From: Desulfobacteria bacterium
GTDB lineage: Bacteria; Desulfobacterota; Desulfobacteria; Desulfobacterales; C00003060
Direction of reading: 5' to 3'
NCBI GenBank assembly: GCA_030145395.1
Contig: JAQYVR010000119.1
Location: forward strand, 1 to 51,539
DNA length: 51,539 bases
The notes beneath the pieces are model-generated. The model had not been told where the DNA came from and ran no database searches. It was given only the letters and a program-made list of their open reading frames with translations. This document shows, piece after piece, positions 2,845 through 51,539 of this stretch (its first letter is position 1; the number at the start of each line of letters is the position of its first letter). Position numbers and translations under genes: made by a program.

Positions 2845-2966
2845 AGGTTCCCGCAGGCCCGACAAATCCCGATACTTCGGGACAAGTCATGGCAAGGAAT
2901 GCGATAGCTGTTGCAGTCTAACACAGGTCCGCTTGCCCACCGCAGCCCCGCTGATTGGATTTTTGC

Positions 2967-2995
2967 TTGACGCAGCCTTCTTGCTTCCCTAATAA
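2967..2995 (+). promoter_or_regulatory. sigma-70-like promoter upstream of the HIT gene
   Basis: TTGACG (2967-2972), a 17-nt spacer, then TAATAA (2990-2995), about 55 nt upstream of ATG 3050. Confidence 0.4.
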
Positions 2996-3049
2996 TGACG
3001 GATTCGCAAAAAGCCATCAAACGGCTTCTTTTGTACAAGGAGAACAAAT

Positions 3050-3463
3050 ATGGACTGCATCTTTTGTAAAATCGTTAGGAACGAAATTCCATCAGTAAAA
3101 GTTTATGAAGATGACAGGGTGTTTGCTTTTTTGGACATCAACCCTCTCAATGACGGCCACCTTCTGGTAATTCCAAAGGCCCATGCTGAGAACATCCACG
3201 AAATCACCGAAGCCGATTTCGTGGCAGTGGCTTCTGCCACACACAAGCTGGCTGCTGCTGTCAAGAAGGCCTTGAATCCCGAAGGGATCAATTTAATGCA
3301 ACTTAACGGCAAGGCCGCCAATCAAGTTGTACCCCATCTGCATGTGCACATCGTTCCCCGGTGGTCAGGTGACGGATTAACTATCTGCAAGTGGGAACTG
3401 ACTGCAGGGGATATGGAAAGGGTTACGGCCATAGGGGAGCAGATTCAACAGGCCATGGAATAA
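3050..3463 (+). CDS. HIT-family nucleotide hydrolase/transferase
   Basis: 137 aa with the histidine triad HLHVHIVP and the N-terminal CIFCKI motif typical of HIT/Hint proteins. Confidence 0.9.
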   Translation: MDCIFCKIVRNEIPSVKVYEDDRVFAFLDINPLNDGHLLVIPKAHAENIHEITEADFVAVASATHKLAAAVKKALNPEGINLMQLNGKAANQVVPHLHVHIVPRWSGDGLTICKWELTAGDMERVTAIGEQIQQAME

Positions 3464-8518: not shown

Positions 8519-9787
8519 ATGCTTTTTCCTGAAATGGCCATAGTTCGGCAAGAACTCCACGCCGAAAAGATTGAAGACATCCCTGCAGCTGTAAGCAATG
8601 CCCTTCAGCCCCTTCAGCTCGACTCACAAACAAAACCCGGCGCATCCGTGGCAGTGGCCGTTGGAAGCCGGGGAATCAGCCACATTGCTGTCATTGTTTC
8701 TGAATGCGTGAAGTCGTTAACCGACAGCGGCTTGGAGCCCTTTATTGTCCCTGCTATGGGGAGTCACGGGGGAAACACACCCGAGGGTGAACGCTCGGTT
8801 CTATCAAGGCTTGGCATTACTGAATCATCAGTTAATGCCCCCATACTTGCGGCTAAGGATGTGGTCAAAATTGGAACTTTGGACATTGGCGTACCCATTC
8901 TCATGGACAAACGTGCAGCCGAAGCCGACCACATTGTAGTAATCAACCGGGTGAAGCCCCATACGAAATTCCACGGGCCGATTGAAAGCGGCCTGACCAA
9001 GATACTCACGGTCGGACTCGGGAAAGGGGAAGGAGCAGTTCTGTATCACCGGGCTGCCGTCCAGCACACTTTTGGCATATTGCAGGACGCTGCCCGAAAT
9101 ATCCTGGAAAACCGTTCAGTCCTCTTTGGGCTTGCCATACTTGAAGACGGTTACAGGAATGTCTCTCGACTCAGTGCTGTAAGGCCCGAAAACTGGTTTG
9201 AATCAGAACGTGCCCTGCTCGATGAGACACGTATGATGACCCCACGCATCCCGTTTGACGGGGTCGATATTCTGATCATAGATGAAATAGGAAAAGAGAT
9301 CAGCGGTATCGGCATGGATTCGAACGTGACTGGAAGACACAGGGACATAGTAGGCGACTTTCTCACTGCCCCGAACGTAAAGCGGATCTTCGTGAGAGAT
9401 TTGAGCCCTGAATCGGACGGCAATGGAAATGGCATCGGACTGGCGGACGTGACCACACGACGTCTCGTGGATGCCCTCGATCTTGAAAAGACTTATACGA
9501 ATGCCCTGACAGCCATCTCTCCGGAAAAGGCGGCTATTCCCATGACTTTCGAGACAGACCGTGAATGCATAGAGGCCTGTCTCAATACCATCGGTCTGGT
9601 GCAGCCTGAGGAAGTGCGGATAATTCGTATCAAAAACACCGCCACGCTGGAGACGCTCTGGGCCTCAAGGGCCTTTGAAGGCGATGTCACGCTCAATCCG
9701 AACCTGAAGATTCTGAGAAAATGGGAGCCGATGGCCTTTGATGATACCGGGAATCTATTCGATTTCGGATTGAAGATTGAAAGATGA
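8519..9787 (+). CDS. conserved protein of unknown function (possibly LarA_N/DUF2088- or DUF362-like)
   Basis: The 422-aa ORF starts 4 nt after the hbd stop. The family assignment rests only on a general resemblance (..VPAMGSHGG.., ..NRVKPHTKFHG..GLTK..) and is weak. Confidence 0.6.
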   Translation: MLFPEMAIVRQELHAEKIEDIPAAVSNALQPLQLDSQTKPGASVAVAVGSRGISHIAVIVSECVKSLTDSGLEPFIVPAMGSHGGNTPEGERSVLSRLGITESSVNAPILAAKDVVKIGTLDIGVPILMDKRAAEADHIVVINRVKPHTKFHGPIESGLTKILTVGLGKGEGAVLYHRAAVQHTFGILQDAARNILENRSVLFGLAILEDGYRNVSRLSAVRPENWFESERALLDETRMMTPRIPFDGVDILIIDEIGKEISGIGMDSNVTGRHRDIVGDFLTAPNVKRIFVRDLSPESDGNGNGIGLADVTTRRLVDALDLEKTYTNALTAISPEKAAIPMTFETDRECIEACLNTIGLVQPEEVRIIRIKNTATLETLWASRAFEGDVTLNPNLKILRKWEPMAFDDTGNLFDFGLKIER

Positions 9788-10398: not shown

Positions 10399-10605
10399 GC
10401 CGCTGACCCCACCCAGCGTGGCAGGTCAAAGGTTTAATGAAGGAACGTGCCGAGATGCTGAAGAAACAGCCCTCGTCAACCGATGTGACCTTTCCTCCAA
10501 AGTAGTCCTTCTTTTAGTTGACGCCCCCTCCTGACTGACACGCGTTGACCCAAATCCACCGTCTGATTTATGTATTGATAATGATATCAGGCTGTTTTGG
10601 GGTAT

Positions 10606-10734
10606 TCCTGATCGCCAGCAAGGCATTAGATGCAAGGCGCCGAGGAGCAACGACTGAGGCGTATGAGCAATACTCCGCAAGGAGGAGCGATCGAAGGCAA
10701 CGCCGCAGATGATGCCTTGATGGTGGATCAGGGA
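10606..10734 (-). repeat. structured intergenic element, family copy A (reverse orientation)
   Basis: The outer inverted repeat is TCCTGATCGCCAGCAAGGCAT (10606-10626) with ATGCCTTGATGGTGGATCAGGGA (10712-10734). On the minus strand the core reads CATCTGCGGCGTTGC...ACGCCTC...GGCGCCTTGCATCT. Confidence 0.75.
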
Positions 10735-10876
10735 TGATATGTTTTGTTGCTATTGTACTTGAATCGTATTATGAGAGTGGTTCTTAGAACTATGTTCGGA
10801 TTGACATAGCTCTGATGGCTTTCTTCATCGTTTGTTTGCTCCCAAAACGGCGGAACTCAACTATAGTAGATAAGGG

Positions 10877-12527: not shown

Positions 12528-13540
12528 GTGCTGTGGTCTATGAGCTAAGAAACATAACCAAGACCTTTGAACAACGAACCGTTCTGAATCTGGAAAGGCT
12601 TTCGGTGAAGAAGGGAAAGATTCTTGGTCTCCTGGGACCCAACGGTGCGGGAAAAACCACGCTCTTGGAAATCATGGCCTTTCTGTCCAGCCCAACTTCA
12701 GGTGGGATGTGGTTCAATCAACAGAAGGTTGATTTCACTGGCGGCAAACTCAAAGACCTGCGGCGAAGGGTTGTACTCGTTCAACAGGATTCTATACTGT
12801 TTTCCACATCGGTTTCCAATAATGTCGATTTCCCTCTGAGGATACGCAAGGCACCAAAGGCAAAACGAGAGCAGATCGTGGGAGAATTGCTAGACATGGT
12901 GGGAATGCGAGACTTCGGCCATGCACCAGCACATAAACTGTCGAGCGGGGAAACACAGCGCGTCGCCATTGCGCGGGCTTTGGCCTGTTTTCCTGAGGTC
13001 ATTCTTCTGGACGAACCCACGGCCAACGTTGACGTAGAAAACCAGATCGCCATAGAGCGCATCATCCGGGAGATCAACCGGACAAAAGGCATTTCTGTGG
13101 TCTTTACAACTCACAATATGATTCAGGCGTCGAGGCTGGCTGATGAGACCGTCTTCCTGTATGAAGGAAAGGTTGCGCGATCCATCTATGAAAACATCTT
13201 CAGTGGTCGCATTCAAACTGACGAAAGCGGTCGGCAACTGTGTGTGGCCCAGAATGGACTGAGATTACACGTTCAGCATGACAAATCGGGTCCGGTGCGT
13301 ATATCTATTGATCCTGCTATCGTAGAAATCAGCCGAAACGGAAACGAGTTTTCTGAAGACAACACCTTCAAGGGAAGGCTCATCCAGCTTACGGACGAGC
13401 AGGGACGGGTGAGAGCGTTGGTAGATGTAGGAGTACCACTCAGTGTTTTGATACCCAAAGAGGTCTTCCGCAGTCTAGGTTTGGGCATAGGAGATGACGT
13501 GTGGCTCAACTGCCCGGCAAAAAGCATTGAAATCTTTTGA
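12524..13540 (+). CDS. tupC: ABC transporter ATP-binding protein with C-terminal TOBE-like domain (TupC-like)
   Basis: Walker A GPNGAGKTT, signature LSSGETQRVAIARAL and Walker B ILLDEPT are present. A ~100-aa C-terminal extension resembles those of molybdate/tungstate ATPases. Confidence 0.8.
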   Translation: MSAVVYELRNITKTFEQRTVLNLERLSVKKGKILGLLGPNGAGKTTLLEIMAFLSSPTSGGMWFNQQKVDFTGGKLKDLRRRVVLVQQDSILFSTSVSNNVDFPLRIRKAPKAKREQIVGELLDMVGMRDFGHAPAHKLSSGETQRVAIARALACFPEVILLDEPTANVDVENQIAIERIIREINRTKGISVVFTTHNMIQASRLADETVFLYEGKVARSIYENIFSGRIQTDESGRQLCVAQNGLRLHVQHDKSGPVRISIDPAIVEISRNGNEFSEDNTFKGRLIQLTDEQGRVRALVDVGVPLSVLIPKEVFRSLGLGIGDDVWLNCPAKSIEIF

Positions 13541-36159: not shown

Positions 36160-36189
36160 CGGAGGTATTCCCTCTCAAACCTATCTAGT

Positions 36190-36328
36190 TTCCATCCATA
36201 AATGGCCCTTTTCCCGATGAGCGGCGTTCTCCGCGGGTTTCCGTCTGCGAAGTACGATCTGTACGCCTCGACGAAAACCCTTGTGCGGCCTTGCTCATCA
36301 GAAAAATTCCTCGTTTATGAATTGGAAA
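36190..36328 (+). repeat. structured intergenic element, family copy D
   Basis: The outer inverted repeats are TTTCCATCCATAAATGG with CGTTTATGAATTGGAAA, and TTTTCCCGATGAGC with GCTCATCAGAAAAA. The core reads GAGCGGCGTTCTC...GTACGCCTCG...GTGCGGCCTTGCTC. Confidence 0.75.
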
Positions 36329-36432
36329 CTTACGCGGTGCCCAACACTTGTTACGTTATTTATGGATAGGCACCATCTAAACGAAAGAAACATTTCGCTA
36401 ACGTAAACCTCAAATCACAAGGAGCTATCCGG

Positions 36433-38366: not shown

Positions 38367-38901
38367 GTTAGGACTCCCGCAAGAGCATAATCTTTCTGCT
38401 ATACGCAGAAGCTTCCGCCCCCGTCACTGACCCTTGATCTTGTTTTGAAAAGAGGAATGGATAGGAAATGCAATTCGTCAGGATGGAAGATAACCGGGAA
38501 GTGGCTTCCCGTAAATTGACGAGCCATTACAAGATAAACTTGTATGCCTTGTCGTTCCGTGTGTTTTGACCGTAATGTGTGACCTGCCAACTGCTGACGT
38601 TACCCTTTAGTTGCATAAACAACATGCAGAAGGTTCTAAAAACCAACCATAGCCCTTCTCCACTAGATATTTGAACGATTTTGTGGAATTCACTGCGGGT
38701 GATATCCAGAAAACCAGAAAAACAGCCATGTTGTTTACCCTTCGGGAAAGCCAATGATACTGTATCTCCCCGGTGGGCGGGATCTGACGACCTGCGCTTG
38801 CCCGCCTCTGGCGGGTTGCCAAGGGTTCGGCGTAGCCTACTACAGCCTCACCCTTGCACGCCTTGGATCTACAGCACCCTCGGCTTTTGCAACGTTAGGG
38901 T

Positions 38902-47006: not shown

Positions 47007-48791
47007 ATGGCAGACAAGAAGATCTTTGCAGGTGGAGAGTTTCTTATTACCGACGCAAGTCCTGAACAGGTGTTCACTCCTGAAGATTTCAAGGAAGAAC
47101 ACAGAATGATCTATGAAACCACTAAGGATTTCGTAAACAGGGAGATTCTGCCAAACCAAGATAAGATTGAGGAAAAGGATAAGGACGTGGTGCTCGGTAT
47201 TTTGGCCAAGGCGGGCGAGTTGGGGCTCCTTGCCACGGACATACCCGAGCAGTATGGAGGACTGGGTCTAGACAAAGTAAGCACCACTGTTGTGACTGAA
47301 GCCACCGGAACGACCGGTTCCTTTACTGCAATCTATGGAGCCCATACAGGGATTGGAAGCCTGCCCATTGTATATTTTGGCAATGAGGATCAGAAGAAAA
47401 AGTATCTGCCGAAATTGGCGTCGGGAGAATGGTGCGGAGCCTACTGCCTCACGGAAGCGGATGCCGGCTCTGATGCCCTGAATGCAAAAACAAAGGCTGT
47501 TCTCTCGGAAGACGGCAAATACTATATCCTGAACGGGACGAAGATGTTCGTTACCAATGGCGGTTGGGCCAGCAGTTTCATTGTGTATGCCAAGGTAGAC
47601 GGTGAGCACTTCACCGGTTTTATCGTGGAACGAGATTTCCCTGGTGTATCTACGGGCGCTGAAGAGAAGAAAATGGGAATGGATGGCTCCTCCACGCGAC
47701 CGCTGATACTGGAAGATGCTGAGGTGCCCGTCGAGAATGTGCTCTTTGAAATCGGCAAAGGACACAAGATTGCCTTTAACGTTCTGAATTTAGGCCGCTG
47801 GAAACTCGGCGCTGCCACAGTGGGCGGATGTAAAGGCTGTGTTATAGAGGCTGTGAAGTACGCCAATAGTCGGATCCAGTTCAACGTGCCCATCAGTTCT
47901 TTTGGTATGATTAAGACCAAATTAGCCAATATGGCTATCCTCACCTTCATAAGCGAGAGCATGATGTATCGTCTGGCAGGGGTCTTTGACGACAAGTTAG
48001 CCACCCTGGATGAAGAGGCCAAGAAGAGCGGTGCCGAGAATGCAAAAGCGATCGGGGAGTATGCCGCCGAATGTTCCATTACCAAAGTCTATGGTTCAGA
48101 GAGCCTCGATTATTGTGTGGATGAGTATGTCCAGATCTTGGGAGGATACGGCTACTGTGCAGAGTATCCTGCCGAACGTTACTACCGGGACTCTAGGATC
48201 AACCGCATATGGGAGGGAACCAACGAGATCAATCGTTTGCTTGTTCCCGGCACTTTGATGCGAAGGGCCTTAAAAGGCCGCCTGGCCCTGTTCCCGGCTG
48301 CACAGGCGATCGCGGGAGAACTCATGAATTACTCACCCCTCTCTGTACAGCTCCCTGACACGGCACTTGCACTGCAGGAGCATATGGTAAAAATGAGCAA
48401 GAAGATTGGCCTTATGGTAGCTGGTGTGGCTGCCCAGAAATTTCAGCAGAAGCTGGTGCACGAACAGGAGGTCATGGCAGGGATTGCTGATATCGTGATC
48501 GAAGTCTTTGCCATGGAGAGCGGGCTTTTAAGAACCCTGAAAATGATTTCGAGGGATGGTGAAGAGAAAGCCAAATACCAAATTGCCGCAGTCAAGGCAT
48601 ACATAGATGAAGGTATACCGAAGATAGAGATGTGGGCTAAGCAGATACTGGCCTATATGGAAGAAGGGGATATGCTCCGGACCCAGTTGGCAGGTGTCAA
48701 GAAGCTGGCACGTTATCAACCCATTGACGCTGTGAGCCTGAAGAGGCAGATTGCGGACAGGATTATAGAGCTTGAATCATACCCCTTCTAG
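47007..48791 (+). CDS. fadE: long-form acyl-CoA dehydrogenase (FadE-type, 594 aa)
   Basis: It has the ACAD N-terminal, middle and C-terminal domains (CLTEADAGSDA, YRDSRINRIWEGTNEI) plus a ~150-aa C-terminal extension. Confidence 0.9.
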   Translation: MADKKIFAGGEFLITDASPEQVFTPEDFKEEHRMIYETTKDFVNREILPNQDKIEEKDKDVVLGILAKAGELGLLATDIPEQYGGLGLDKVSTTVVTEATGTTGSFTAIYGAHTGIGSLPIVYFGNEDQKKKYLPKLASGEWCGAYCLTEADAGSDALNAKTKAVLSEDGKYYILNGTKMFVTNGGWASSFIVYAKVDGEHFTGFIVERDFPGVSTGAEEKKMGMDGSSTRPLILEDAEVPVENVLFEIGKGHKIAFNVLNLGRWKLGAATVGGCKGCVIEAVKYANSRIQFNVPISSFGMIKTKLANMAILTFISESMMYRLAGVFDDKLATLDEEAKKSGAENAKAIGEYAAECSITKVYGSESLDYCVDEYVQILGGYGYCAEYPAERYYRDSRINRIWEGTNEINRLLVPGTLMRRALKGRLALFPAAQAIAGELMNYSPLSVQLPDTALALQEHMVKMSKKIGLMVAGVAAQKFQQKLVHEQEVMAGIADIVIEVFAMESGLLRTLKMISRDGEEKAKYQIAAVKAYIDEGIPKIEMWAKQILAYMEEGDMLRTQLAGVKKLARYQPIDAVSLKRQIADRIIELESYPF

Positions 48792-48932
48792 AACCCATCT
48801 CAAAAATGCGTCTAAGGCCCCATGGCGGCGTTGCGGGTCGGCTCAAAATGCTCACATACTACCGTGTATGCTGCGCTTTTTCGCCGCCCCGCGCCTTGCC
48901 CTGAACCCTGATTCACATCTTTGAGATGGGTT
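48792..48932 (+). repeat. structured intergenic element, family copy C1 (starts at the first nt after the fadE stop)
   Basis: A perfect 13-bp outer stem pairs AACCCATCTCAAA (48792-48804) with TTTGAGATGGGTT (48920-48932). The core reads CATGGCGGCGTTGCGGG...CCCCGCGCCTTGCCC. Confidence 0.8.
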
Positions 48933-48933
48933 A

Positions 48934-49252
48934 TAGTGTCGTGTCCCGGGAATAACTTTCATTAGTTATCGGCCGCCGAAAGCCTTTTCCGAGCGACATT
49001 GAGCATTTTCGGGCACGTAGTGCCTCTGTTCAAGCCGTCAGGCGCAACCTTTGCGCTATAAGACGTCAACTGAGTGCAGCGTTAAGAATCATAAGCTGTT
49101 TGAGGGCCTCAGGCCCGAGTTGTAGCGCTCCACTTCACTGCGTGCATGATTCAGTGAAACGAAGCTGACGTCCCGAAAATGCTCACGGAGCAAGGAAAAT
49201 GGCCTGATGGCGAAACCATATTTCTTGAACAAACTTCTGAGACACAACACTA
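48934..49252. repeat. ~320-bp long imperfect palindrome (MITE-like)
   Basis: The arm pairs are nested: TAGTGTCGTGTC (48934-45) with GACACAACACTA (49241-52); CCTTTTCCGAGCG.. with ..GGAGCAAGGAAAATGG; and TGAGCATTTTCGGGCACGT (49000-18) with ACGTCCCGAAAATGCTCA (49168-85). The AAAATGCTCAC motif also occurs inside copy C1. Confidence 0.75.
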
Positions 49253-49283
49253 GTTGAGAGGGTAAAGCTTAAGAACGATGGAA

Positions 49284-49329
49284 GGCTTTTTGTTGAGGCG
49301 TACACGTAGTGCGCCGCAGACGGAAAGCC
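49284..49329 (-). repeat. miniature copy of the structured-element family (reverse orientation)
   Basis: The minus strand reads GGCTTT-ccgt-CTGCGGCGC-actacgt-GTACGCCTC-aacaa-AAAGCC, i.e. box 1 and box 2 inside a 6-bp flanking inverted repeat. Confidence 0.55.
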
Positions 49330-49394
49330 GTGTAGAACGCCGCTCATCGAAAAAAGAGCCGTTTGTGGATCGGAACTAACAAAGGAGGCACATT

Positions 49395-51077
49395 ATGACC
49401 GCAGCGGAAAGACCCTGGCTTAAGTTTTACGAAGAAGGGGTTCCAGAGAGTGTGGAGTTCGAAGAGATATGCCTTCCTGATATCCTTGACAGGAGCGCCC
49501 AGATGTTTCCCGACAACATGGCCCTGCTATTTCAGGGATACCAGGTCACCTATGCGGAGCTTAAGGAGATGGTCGACCGCTTTGCCACTATCCTTGTTGG
49601 ATTCGGAATCAAGAAGGGAGACAGCGTGGCCATTCTACTTCCGAACCTCATCCCCTGTGTTGTGGCCTATTATGCCATCCTCAAGATTGGGGGGGTGGCG
49701 GTGATGAACAATCCGCTGTATTCGAATCGGGAACTGGGTCACCAGTTCACTGACTCAGAGGCAAAGCTCCTGGTGACCCTTGATCTTCTGGGAAACCGAA
49801 TGATAGATTTGCGACCTCAGACAAATATCAAAGAGATCATTTACACGTCCATCGGCGATTACCTCCCCTTTCCCAAGAGTCTCTTGTTTCCCCTCGTTGC
49901 CAAAAAGAAAAAGCTGGCCGCAGATGTGAAGTCAGCCCCGGATGTCTACAAATGGAAAAAGCTCTTAGCTGGTGCCCAACCCAACCCTCCCCAGGTGTCT
50001 CTCAAATTCGACGATGTGGCTATGTACCAGTATACCGGAGGGACGACCGGTGTTTCCAAGGGAGCAGTCCTGACCCAGGAAAACCTTGTGAAAAACGTTC
50101 AGCAGCTTGCTGCCTGGTTCCCGCGCTTTAAGAAGGGAGAAGAAATCATGCTGGGGGCCCTCCCCTTCTTCCATGTCTTCGGACTCACGACATCAATGAA
50201 TTTTGCCGTATACATGGGATGGGGAAATGTACTGGTCCCTAAACCCCAGCCCCAGCCGCTTTTGGAGGCGATCCGAAAATTCAAACCGAGCTTTGCTCCT
50301 CTCGTTCCTGCCATGTTTGTCGGCATTCTAAACCACCCGGACATCAAAAAGACCGATATGACCTGTTTGAAAGGATGTTTTTCCGGGAGTGCCCCTCTCC
50401 CCGTGGAGGTGATACGTGAGTTTGAAGAGATGACAGGAGCCGTGATCGTAGAAGGCTACGGACTCACAGAATCCTCCCCGGCAACTCACATCAATCCCTT
50501 TGAAGGCCGTCGAAAGGTGGGCAGCATTGGCATACCTCTCTCTGATACTTACTGTAAACTTGTGGACGTGAACGAAGCCGAAAAGGAGGTCCCCATAGGA
50601 GAGCGGGGAGAGATAGCAATCAGGGGGCCCCAGGTGATGCAAGGCTATCGGAACATGCCCGAAGAGACTGCCTTAACGATCAAAGACGGCTGGCTCCATA
50701 CCGGGGACATCGCTACCATGGACGAGGAGGGGTATTTCTACATTGTGGATCGGAAGAAAGACATGATCATCTGTGGGGGATGTAATGTCTATCCCCGTGA
50801 TATCGATGAGGTGTTTTATGAGCATCCAAAGGTGAAGGAAGCCTGTGCGATTGGGATCCCCCACCCCACCCGGGGGGAAGCCGTCAAATGCTGTGTGGTC
50901 TTGAAGGAAGGGGAAACAGCAACGGCCGAAGAGATGATTGAGTTTTGCAAAGGAAAACTCGCTGTTTACAAACTCCCCACAGAGGTGGAATTCCGCGCTG
51001 AGTTGCCCAAGACCAATGTGGGGAAGATATTAAGGAAGGCACTTCGGGCCGAAGACGAGGCAAAGAGAAAGACTTGA
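49395..51077 (+). CDS. fadD: long-chain fatty-acid--CoA ligase
   Basis: The AMP-binding motifs YTGGTTGVSKGA, GYGLTE and GWLHTGD and the C-terminal ..LPKTNVGKILRK are present. An AAAGGAGG RBS precedes the gene. Confidence 0.93.
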   Translation: MTAAERPWLKFYEEGVPESVEFEEICLPDILDRSAQMFPDNMALLFQGYQVTYAELKEMVDRFATILVGFGIKKGDSVAILLPNLIPCVVAYYAILKIGGVAVMNNPLYSNRELGHQFTDSEAKLLVTLDLLGNRMIDLRPQTNIKEIIYTSIGDYLPFPKSLLFPLVAKKKKLAADVKSAPDVYKWKKLLAGAQPNPPQVSLKFDDVAMYQYTGGTTGVSKGAVLTQENLVKNVQQLAAWFPRFKKGEEIMLGALPFFHVFGLTTSMNFAVYMGWGNVLVPKPQPQPLLEAIRKFKPSFAPLVPAMFVGILNHPDIKKTDMTCLKGCFSGSAPLPVEVIREFEEMTGAVIVEGYGLTESSPATHINPFEGRRKVGSIGIPLSDTYCKLVDVNEAEKEVPIGERGEIAIRGPQVMQGYRNMPEETALTIKDGWLHTGDIATMDEEGYFYIVDRKKDMIICGGCNVYPRDIDEVFYEHPKVKEACAIGIPHPTRGEAVKCCVVLKEGETATAEEMIEFCKGKLAVYKLPTEVEFRAELPKTNVGKILRKALRAEDEAKRKT

Positions 51078-51083
51078 CGGCTT

Positions 51084-51270
51084 CGTAAAAAGTCCATCTG
51101 CGGCGTTGCACTTCATCCCCGCCCTGTTAAATTCTCGCTGCGCGAGACGGCGGAGCCGATTTAACAGGGTGAATCGTTGCGACGTACCATAAGTACGCCT
51201 CGCTCCTCAAGGTTTGCGCGCCTTGCATCTGGAGCTTGCTACTGTGCCGTCTGTTTGCTGACTTTTTGCG
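51084..51270 (+). repeat. structured intergenic element, family copy E (starts 7 nt after the fadD stop)
   Basis: The outer stem pairs CGTAAAAAGTC (51084-94) with GACTTTTTGCG (51260-70). The core reads CATCTGCGGCGTTGCAC...[inner hairpin CCCTGTTAAAT..ATTTAACAGGG]...GTACGCCTCGCTCCTC...GCGCGCCTTGCATCTGG. Confidence 0.8.
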
Positions 51271-51391
51271 GGTCCATCTGACTTAGACGACTAACGAATA
51301 ATGTCGAATTGTGTGCCTGTACATAGGCTATAACTCACCATTTTCTATGGGAATTGTGGAAGCGGGCTTTTCGATTTTAGGAAGATTGTAC

Positions 51392-51420
51392 TTGACATTT
51401 AGGTGCTGATTCCCTATACG
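51392..51420 (+). promoter_or_regulatory. sigma-70-like promoter reading out of the window
   Basis: TTGACA (51392-97), a 17-nt spacer, then TATACG (51415-20). A 9-bp stem follows: GCAGCCCTC (51438-46) with GAGGGCTGC (51476-84). Confidence 0.4.
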
Positions 51421-51539
51421 CACTAGGCAAATTGCTTGCAGCCCTCTGGGCAAATGAGTATTTATAGGGCACCCTGAGGGCTGCCTGCGTGAAGGATACA
51501 ACTGGTAAACATCTGACCTTTTGGAACTGCAACCACAAC

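Follow-up and report, generated by a model that had tools for sequence, protein, structure and literature searches.

The window, the whole stretch of DNA analyzed here, is the 51,539-nt contig JAQYVR010000119.1 of the metagenome-assembled genome (MAG) GCA_030145395.1 from a Desulfobacteria bacterium, and its intergenic spacers harbor several copies of a structured repeat, two of which supply part of the stop codons of fadE and fadD. An earlier note on this sequence had listed six copies in which three conserved boxes lie inside self-complementary flanks, and the boxes are indeed present in the sequence as described. A covariance model trained solely on copies from other genomes (R1) matched the window at exactly five places, namely the elements of families A, D, C1 and E (E of 1e-9 or less in all four) and a shorter copy, called "mini" in the note, which proved to be a truncated member of family D (Table 1). 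In a repeat search this truncated copy matched 36186-36282 over 97 nt at 80%, and nhmmer detected it as well. The sixth candidate, at 38825-38870, falls inside a different repeat, family H, no part of which was matched by R1 in the window at E up to 5. The boundaries of the elements also required revision: A, D and E extend further than had been proposed, with a second, outer inverted repeat at the right end, and it is this outer repeat that the target-site duplications flank.

Table 1. Elements and associated features of the window, followed by the Y1 transposase genes located on other contigs of the same genome.
Feature	Position	Strand	Length (nt)	R1 match (E value)	Parts and flanking sequence
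Family A element	10549..10733	minus	185 (full length)	10620-10718 (5e-20)	Left terminal repeat CCCTGATCCACC.., core hairpin, inner and outer right repeats; flanking 4-nt repeats on the element strand, TCAT (10734-10737) and TCAA (10545-10548)
Family D element	36188..36373	plus	186	36209-36306 (7e-17)	Left repeat GTTTCCATCCATAAAT.., core, inner right repeat (CATTTATGAATTGGAAAC), spacer, outer right repeat (..ATTTATGGATAGGCAC); 6-bp duplication TATCTA 36182-36187 / CATCTA 36374-36379, 5/6 identical
Family H copy	38790..38900	plus			Separate repeat, ~20 genomic matches; not a confirmed core member
fadE stop codon (TAG)	48789-48791				Duplicated TA plus first G of C1
Family C1 element	48791..48933	plus	143	48813-48911 (1e-11)	Symmetric terminal repeats GAACCCATCTCAAAAATG; TA duplication at 48789-48790 and 48934-48935; boxes 1 and 3 present, apical hairpin different
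Truncated family D copy ("mini")	49282..49379	minus	98	49276-49349 (3e-4)	Left repeat to box 2 only
fadD stop codon (TGA)	51075-51077				Last T of the duplication plus first GA of E
Family E element	51076..51278	plus	203	51088-51238 (9e-10)	Optional 57-nt hairpin module in core, ~51118-51174; 6-bp duplication AGACTT 51070-51075 / TGACTT 51279-51284, 5/6 identical
Y1 transposase gene	contig C17, 8512-9555	minus			
Y1 transposase gene	contig C161, 8817-9824	plus			
Y1 transposase gene	contig C176, 2155-2868	plus			

Searching the home assembly (2.87 Mb in 288 contigs) by nhmmer with each window copy as query separated A, D, C1 and E into four distinct families rather than variants of one repeat, with approximately 6, 39, 62 and 38 matches, respectively. 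Together the four families occupy 145 non-overlapping intervals, or 0.68% of the assembly, and the elements measure 101-320 nt. Full-length copies align through their flanks, and the inverted repeats that the note had described as copy-specific are therefore terminal inverted repeats conserved within each family. The parts of A, D, E and their relatives from Nitrospira and NC10 follow a single order of left repeat, core hairpin, a spacer of 10-80 nt and outer right repeat, with the core hairpin closed by the left repeat pairing with its inner inverted copy to give an imperfect hairpin of approximately 100-125 nt in all. C1 is built of two symmetric ends only, with neither the spacer nor the outer right repeat.

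Reading the flanks copy by copy revealed that a target-site duplication brackets every well-preserved copy, the sequence varying between copies while its two sides match. The duplications are 6 bp long in family E (AAGTTT, ACCCTT, AGAATT, AAACTT, AAGATT and AATCTT) and in family D (CAGCTA, AAGTTA, TAATTA and TAACTA), 4 bp in family A (TTAA, TCGA and GTTC) and a TA inside YTAR in family C1, while the Nitrospira-type copies carry 4-bp duplications of CTAA or CTAG. Such duplications of varying sequence are the footprint of staggered-cut (DDE-type) insertion. At the locus itself, the fadE-fadD spacer is approximately 45 nt long and holds a ribosome-binding site in three congeners (G003, G007 and G021), but spans approximately 600 nt in the window genome, where it consists of C1, a repeat of a further family (F) and the truncated D copy. 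The mobility suggested in the earlier note is thus borne out by termini, duplications and the short spacer of relatives, with the qualification that the unit that moved is the whole element, flanks included.

Small size and multiple copies, conserved terminal inverted repeats, a duplication at each copy and presence or absence at an orthologous site are all observed, and the elements are thereby MITEs (miniature inverted-repeat transposable elements) by every test save that of a known partner, unusual in sharing a hairpin core across differing ends and phyla. An autonomous insertion sequence with the same termini is the one expected feature lacking, which lowers the claim without excluding it, and MITEs with no known partner do exist. 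We therefore consider it probable that the elements are non-autonomous DNA transposons of one superfamily.

The core that unites the families is captured by the composite pattern GCGGCGTT-N25-45-TACGCCTC-N14-24-GCCTTGC, which occurs 19 times in the home genome and not once when reversed. The genome-wide covariance-model search gave at least 69 R1 matches in the home genome, C1-family copies among them, when 150 of 651 candidates were scored. Folding of single sequences yielded one long interrupted hairpin in nearly all copies, and on the better-folding strand the core reads P1 - GC - AA bulge - GGC - variable helices - GA - GGCGUA(C) loop (G)UACGYY - GA/GCA - ... - AAC - GCC - GC - P1'. The letters conserved on this strand form the AA bulge, the GGC/GCC helix, the AAC loop and a GA/GA (or GA/GCA) loop positioned beneath the apical stem GGCGUAC...GUACGYY. 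The conserved core letters are placed at bulges and internal loops, while the helices are kept by compensatory change across phyla.

Two counts support these helices. An anchor-based count, which needs no structural alignment, showed that flank pairs with flank and that the stretch after box 1 pairs with the stretch before box 3; sliding the partner by one to two positions abolished this pairing, and each position showed more than one or two types of pair. In a formal count over 57 diverse copies, 89.4% of cells were paired, compared with 31-41% for slid partners, and the covariation score reached 0.429 against approximately 0.1 for slid partners and 0.166 for shuffled ones, with none of 500 shuffles attaining the observed score; both sides had changed in 18 of the 29 pairs. 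The invariance of the boxes is by construction, as the search pattern demands them, whereas the helices were not demanded. Covariation of the enclosing helix, as suggested in the note, is therefore strong and extends to the internal helices.

The strand on which the hairpin forms is not the one in which the note had read it. The reverse complement was more stable in 88 of 89 copies, by a mean of 10 kcal/mol, and the partners of the invariant box 2 Gs were only C or T (GC 33 / GU 24 and GU 36 / GC 21 in the formal count), a pattern of G·U pairs that identifies the reverse complement as the folding strand, since the opposite strand would give C·A mismatches. The pairing of GGCGT in box 1 with ACGCC in box 2 that had been proposed is possible, but it is invariant in sequence and competes with the covarying apical helix. 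It was the sole pairing recovered by RNAalifold from a plain MAFFT alignment because the variable helices were misaligned, and the anchor-based and minus-strand alignments solved the problem. A scan of the window and four foreign loci against Rfam 15 returned no match at or above a family's gathering threshold, with chance-level matches alone at E up to 5, in line with the note, in which the boxes had not been recognized as any named repeat or Rfam family. Two further candidates were rejected: a hammerhead-like CTGATGAG on the reverse strand of D is family-specific stem sequence and not a conserved motif, and the CATCTG direct repeat around the E core, considered as a possible duplication, is missing in D and in the Nitrospira-type copies and represents a mismatched stem.

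The elements are also mosaic. Subfamilies of D and E have hairpin modules that are optional, sit at fixed points and occur nearly only within their own family, and contigs from public sequencing runs include E copies that lack the 57-nt module of the window copy (joint 51117-51174). Variants of C1 keep the left half and have the right half swapped, and in a chimeric copy on contig C267 (~13390-13500, reverse strand) the left terminus and box 1 of D are joined at the apical hairpin to the right half of E, suggesting that two families recombined, or that template switching linked them, at the common core. The differing termini and duplication lengths around one core, together with the C1 variants of identical termini but other interiors, might be explained if the boxes were a tiny independent element that had landed in hairpins already in place, for example terminators or other MITEs. 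We regard this as very unlikely, as the core itself has no bounding duplication or terminal repeat and was never seen alone outside a flanked element in the home genome, while the helices of the flanks are homologous across families, with an A-rich tract and then GNCC beside P1. The optional modules likewise behave as subfamily-specific arm extensions and not as free elements, and the chimeras are better explained by recombination at the common core; the insertion into older hairpins envisaged in the note thus found no support.

The elements are also non-randomly placed with respect to genes. Overall orientation relative to neighboring genes in the home genome is only mildly biased (42 co-directional, 28 opposite), but the hairpin (left) end abuts a stop codon in 48 of 117 copies as opposed to 6 of 91 for the other end (Fisher p = 8e-9), abutting being defined as a distance of -14 to +60 nt from the stop of an open reading frame (ORF) of at least 150 aa reading into the element. 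Among random 150-nt intervals, the proportion abutting a stop is 1.8%. The sense placement just after stop codons that the note had remarked on at fadE and fadD is thus a genome-wide property, and it holds for C1 alone (26 of 53 versus 2 of 35) despite the symmetric ends and symmetric TA/CTAG target of this family. Among the multi-phylum loci, the asymmetry was weak (63 of 110 versus 44 of 103, with a wider window at the right end). That the elements land on stop codons is explained by a preference for TA-rich targets, but the orientation is not, and it reflects either selection of one orientation at mRNA 3' ends or an insertion process coupled to transcription or replication. A simple scan for promoters and terminators found nothing above the shuffled expectation.

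On the minus strand, the terminal repeat of C1 carries an outward-facing TTGAGA hexamer that, with TATGAT from the 3' end of fadE at a spacing of 16 nt, makes a promoter-like site of 10/12 matches at 48776-48803. Both ends of every C1 copy carry such a -35-like hexamer, and hybrid promoters could arise on insertion.

The strength of the covariation in all helices, the strand-specific G·U pairs opposite the invariant Gs, the concentration of conserved letters in bulges and internal loops across phyla, and the strong bias in orientation and position at gene ends in the home genome would all be expected if the conserved unit were a functional structured RNA and its mobility secondary. Such an RNA might be a small or antisense RNA from the minus strand or part of an mRNA 3' end, selected to bind a protein or nuclease by way of the AA bulge, AAC loop and GA/GA loop. 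Metatranscriptome contigs point in the same direction in that they cover the repeats at a depth of 20-40 and the flanking genes hardly at all, although the contigs are undirected, derive from a multi-copy sequence and could reflect carried-over DNA. We nevertheless judge this explanation to be unlikely. Rfam holds no match, the copies share no common promoter and C1 has no spacer at all, and the folding strand disagrees with the strand carried in adjacent mRNAs. Furthermore, the duplications and the truncated and chimeric copies indicate that copies arise by transposition and not by gene duplication, and templated correction between arms also yields compensatory change in quasi-palindromes. 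Covariation alone does not make an element an RNA gene.

Beyond the home genome, the composite pattern was present in at least 119 stretches among 185,579 species genomes. By record title, the taxa among the matches listed include Nitrospira/Nitrospirota, NC10/Methylomirabilota, Rokuibacteriota, Sulfotelmatobacter, Planctomycetota and Binatia, as well as Peptococcaceae, Hyphomicrobiales, Geobacter, Pelotalea chapellei, Smithella, Syntrophales and Desulfobacterales, with the proviso that lone matches in MAGs may stem from mis-binned contigs. Closer to home, the pattern was found in 17 of the 24 congeners sampled, as well as in two further families of the order, and the exact pattern in 41 of 301 genomes drawn as an even sample of Desulfobacterota, where it is patchy by family, reaches a maximum of 76 copies per genome and has almost no matches when reversed. 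The terminal motif matched 112 and 214 times in two Nitrospira genomes. The core pattern had no match in plasmids and occurred in just one of 2.9 million viral contigs. No relevant paper in the searched literature contained the box strings, nor did the supplements on the Geobacter "multicopy nucleotide sequence," and literature on REP or MITE together with Nitrospira yielded nothing specific and no description of the element.

In an NC10 genome (G058), 15 consecutive core copies lie on the same strand over 1.1 Mb of contig C2 (1.08-2.20 Mb; locus L015), which points to an orientation bias along the replichore or with gene direction.

A number of observations weigh against the elements being MITEs, among them the missing mobilizing enzyme. 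No autonomous partner was found in the home genome, four congeners, three Nitrospira genomes and one NC10 genome, and no pair of element ends encloses a transposase gene in the home genome. Transposase searches used the models NF033581, PF01609, PF13358 and PF00665 in up to five genomes each: IS4/IS5 transposases (PF01609, NF033581) are essentially lacking in five genomes with tens to hundreds of copies, as are IS630 transposases (PF13358) in the copy-rich genomes examined, and a single weak match of IS4/IS5 type has ends that do not fit the elements. Genes with an rve domain (PF00665) are present, but their ends are unrelated to those of the elements. No gene recurs beside the 119 foreign copies. 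Families with homologous cores also differ in duplication length (2, 4 and 6 bp), which is unusual if a single type of transposase moves them all, the simplest guess being an insertion sequence family whose subgroups differ in duplication length. The empty fadE-fadD sites come from relatives only 76-80% identical, such that absence of the elements is visible while an exact excision scar is not readable, and the copy counts rest on a fragmented MAG. Finally, the strand signals are opposed, as the mRNAs of adjacent genes carry the plus strand while the minus strand folds better, a mismatch that may reflect harm done by the near-perfect strand inside an mRNA, and neither strand-specific G·U covariation nor bulge sequences conserved across phyla would be required of a purely selfish element of double-stranded DNA.

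Several leads toward a partner were discarded. Pairs of termini at kilobase spacing in the home genome enclose ordinary genes together with a solo end, and the sole cluster of neighbors located by the cores is type II secretion protein F rather than a transposase. A scan of Nitrospira for the outer right end produced too few matches to be usable, and a heuristic search for distant outer repeats in the 119 loci was too noisy to use.

The one-sided position of the hairpin raises the alternative that the core is a remnant of a regulatory hairpin from the left end of a parental insertion sequence, either an outward antisense RNA of the IS10 RNA-OUT kind or a block on read-through into the transposase gene, which the MITEs inherited when the gene between the inner and outer right repeats was deleted. 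The terminal repeat is part of the hairpin, which always occupies one end of the element, the gene would formerly have lain in the spacer separating the inner from the outer right repeat, the better-folding strand reads outward via the hairpin end, and RNA-OUT itself uses long stems studded with mismatches. Nonetheless, no locus or genome examined holds a full-length element with the hairpin beside a transposase gene, C1 lacks both spacer and outer repeat, and conservation in copies that have no gene to regulate needs another reason, all of which make this origin unlikely.

Enzymes of the Y1 (HUH) class, such as the REP-associated tyrosine transposases (RAYTs), act on single-stranded DNA hairpins, and what they read is an imperfect hairpin that folds strand-specifically and has conserved bulges. 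The base of the core hairpin (..GC AA GGCG .. CGCC GC ..) also resembles what we take to be the Escherichia coli repetitive extragenic palindrome (REP) stem (GGAT AA GGCG .. CGCC GC ATCC), a likeness that serves as a lead only. The home genome encodes one IS200 transposase and three RAYT-like Y1 proteins, whose best match is the REP-associated tyrosine transposase model, below its cut-off, and whose C-termini are longer than those of RAYTs; a DnaA_C/HTH-like C-terminal match, below the Pfam cut-off, was seen in the contig C161 protein only. Each of the three genes is flanked by its own GGGGACG-type inverted repeats (GGGGACGCCTATGA.., GGGGACGTTATTGA.., repeated AAAAGGTACC), unlike the element ends, and the genes belong to the TIRYT class described in PMC6006769. 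A REP/REPIN-like or IS200/IS605-like nature of the elements is accordingly the least probable alternative and highly improbable in itself, as all families have target-site duplications and terminal inverted repeats, neither of which Y1 transposition makes, and measure 101-320 nt rather than 20-40 nt. The Y1 gene on contig C17 adjoins two tRNA-like stretches.

Returning to the elements as MITEs, transposases that recognize the outer repeats would move the copies in trans, and the core would be kept because it acts as a single-stranded hairpin. We favor an action in RNA, inside the transcription unit, in which a 3'-end hairpin would affect mRNA processing or stability, effects that have been shown for Correia and REP elements, and the tolerated orientation alone would then survive beside stop codons. 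Just as well, the core could have been left over from the regulatory hairpin of a parent insertion sequence. A broader possibility, which we advance tentatively, is that the core is a widely distributed functional nucleic acid module, a strand-specific RNA or single-stranded DNA structure, that was captured by, or recruited, several sets of transposon ends, with a host or element-encoded protein recognizing the AA bulge, AAC loop and tandem-GA loop. If true, this would account for a core that phyla have in common despite varying termini and duplication lengths, as well as for the lack of an ordinary transposase partner and the biased orientation at gene ends.

The usual description of MITEs is of taxon-specific elements whose ends are conserved and whose interior is free (e.g., PMC11602168), and the present elements reverse this picture: it is the structured interior that has been conserved among Desulfobacterota, Nitrospira, NC10, Acidobacteria and Planctomycetes, and the ends and duplication length differ by family. 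If functional, the core would rank among the most widespread unannotated structured elements of environmental bacteria, with control of mRNA 3' ends, antisense regulation and recognition by a mobilizing enzyme as candidate functions. The elements supply stop codons, here for fadE and fadD, enlarge intergenic spacers within operons, yield spurious ORFs and break MAG assemblies (25 of 145 copies lie less than 300 nt from a contig end), and a covariance model would for these reasons improve annotation. New here are the unification of the families, their cross-phylum extent, the duplications per family, the formal test of covariation and strand, the negative partner searches and the orientation bias at stop codons.

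Other repeats accompany the elements. Family F, which in the window lies directly after C1 at 48936-49255, is approximately 320 nt long, has 41 nhmmer matches in the genome and is multi-copy in congeners; many C1 copies elsewhere are followed by its start (GTGTCGTGTC..), indicating that C1 and F tend to sit together. Family H (~111 nt) contains box-like strings (TCGGCGTAG..CTACAGCCTC..CGCCTTGG), and three copies other than that of the window match R1 weakly (E 1e-5 to 1e-3), such that H may be a distant relative of the core. The 255 nt that follow E (51285-51539) are 81% identical to a stretch beside an E copy on contig C163 (1311-1559) and could represent a larger duplicated unit or another repeat beside E. 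A solo E-like end (TGACGGATTCGCAAAAAGCCATCAAACGGC) lies at 2996-3030 in the 205-nt spacer (2845-3050) that precedes the HIT gene, and the remainder of this spacer is matched weakly at seven further genomic sites. Heptamer arrays of the CCTTACG/CCTTATG type (GCCTTACGCCTTATGCCTTACGCC..) occur free on contig C60 (~9558-9640) and as apical inserts in E copies on contigs C95 and C202.

Among known systems, REP/BIME sequences resemble the elements in being extragenic, imperfect GC-rich palindromes with conserved mismatches and mosaic modules, often at gene 3' ends, but they are 20-40 nt long, have neither terminal inverted repeats nor duplications and are partnered by a RAYT gene. Membership in the REP/REPIN group with RAYT is inconsistent with the duplications found here and with Y1 genes flanked by unrelated GGGGACG.. 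repeats. Palindrome-associated elements derived from IS200/IS605 have neither terminal inverted repeats nor target duplications and insert 3' of a fixed tetra- or pentanucleotide, whereas terminal repeats and variable duplications are present here. Comparison by reading with integron attC sites, which mark the ends of gene cassettes in arrays, places the boxes off the R''/R' core-site consensus (RYYYAAC ... GTTRRRY), and the copies are dispersed singly beside unrelated housekeeping genes. The 4-bp CTAA/CTAG duplication of the Nitrospira- and NC10-type copies recalls MITEs derived from IS5, a group for which the YTAR target is typical; however, the duplications of D and E are 6 bp, that of C1 is TA, and transposases of the IS5 type are essentially lacking in five copy-rich genomes. 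IS10 RNA-OUT shares with the core hairpin a long, mismatch-interrupted stem-loop by one transposon end with the better-folding strand directed outward, a likeness of position and shape only, as the two have no sequence similarity.

A close parallel is offered by the Correia elements (NEMIS/CREE) of Neisseria, gene-less repeats of approximately 100-160 bp with terminal inverted repeats and a TA duplication that occur in hundreds of copies, usually near genes, are often co-transcribed and form long hairpins processed in RNA; we know of no resident transposase for them. They have been named the first bacterial MITEs (PMC11602168). The present elements have no sequence similarity to Correia elements but are likewise small gene-less repeats with terminal inverted repeats, a TA duplication in C1 and long hairpins. 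While Correia elements are restricted to a single genus and form their hairpin just by pairing of the termini, the elements described here possess a non-terminal, bulged core that is common to families with differing ends and duplications and that extends across phyla.

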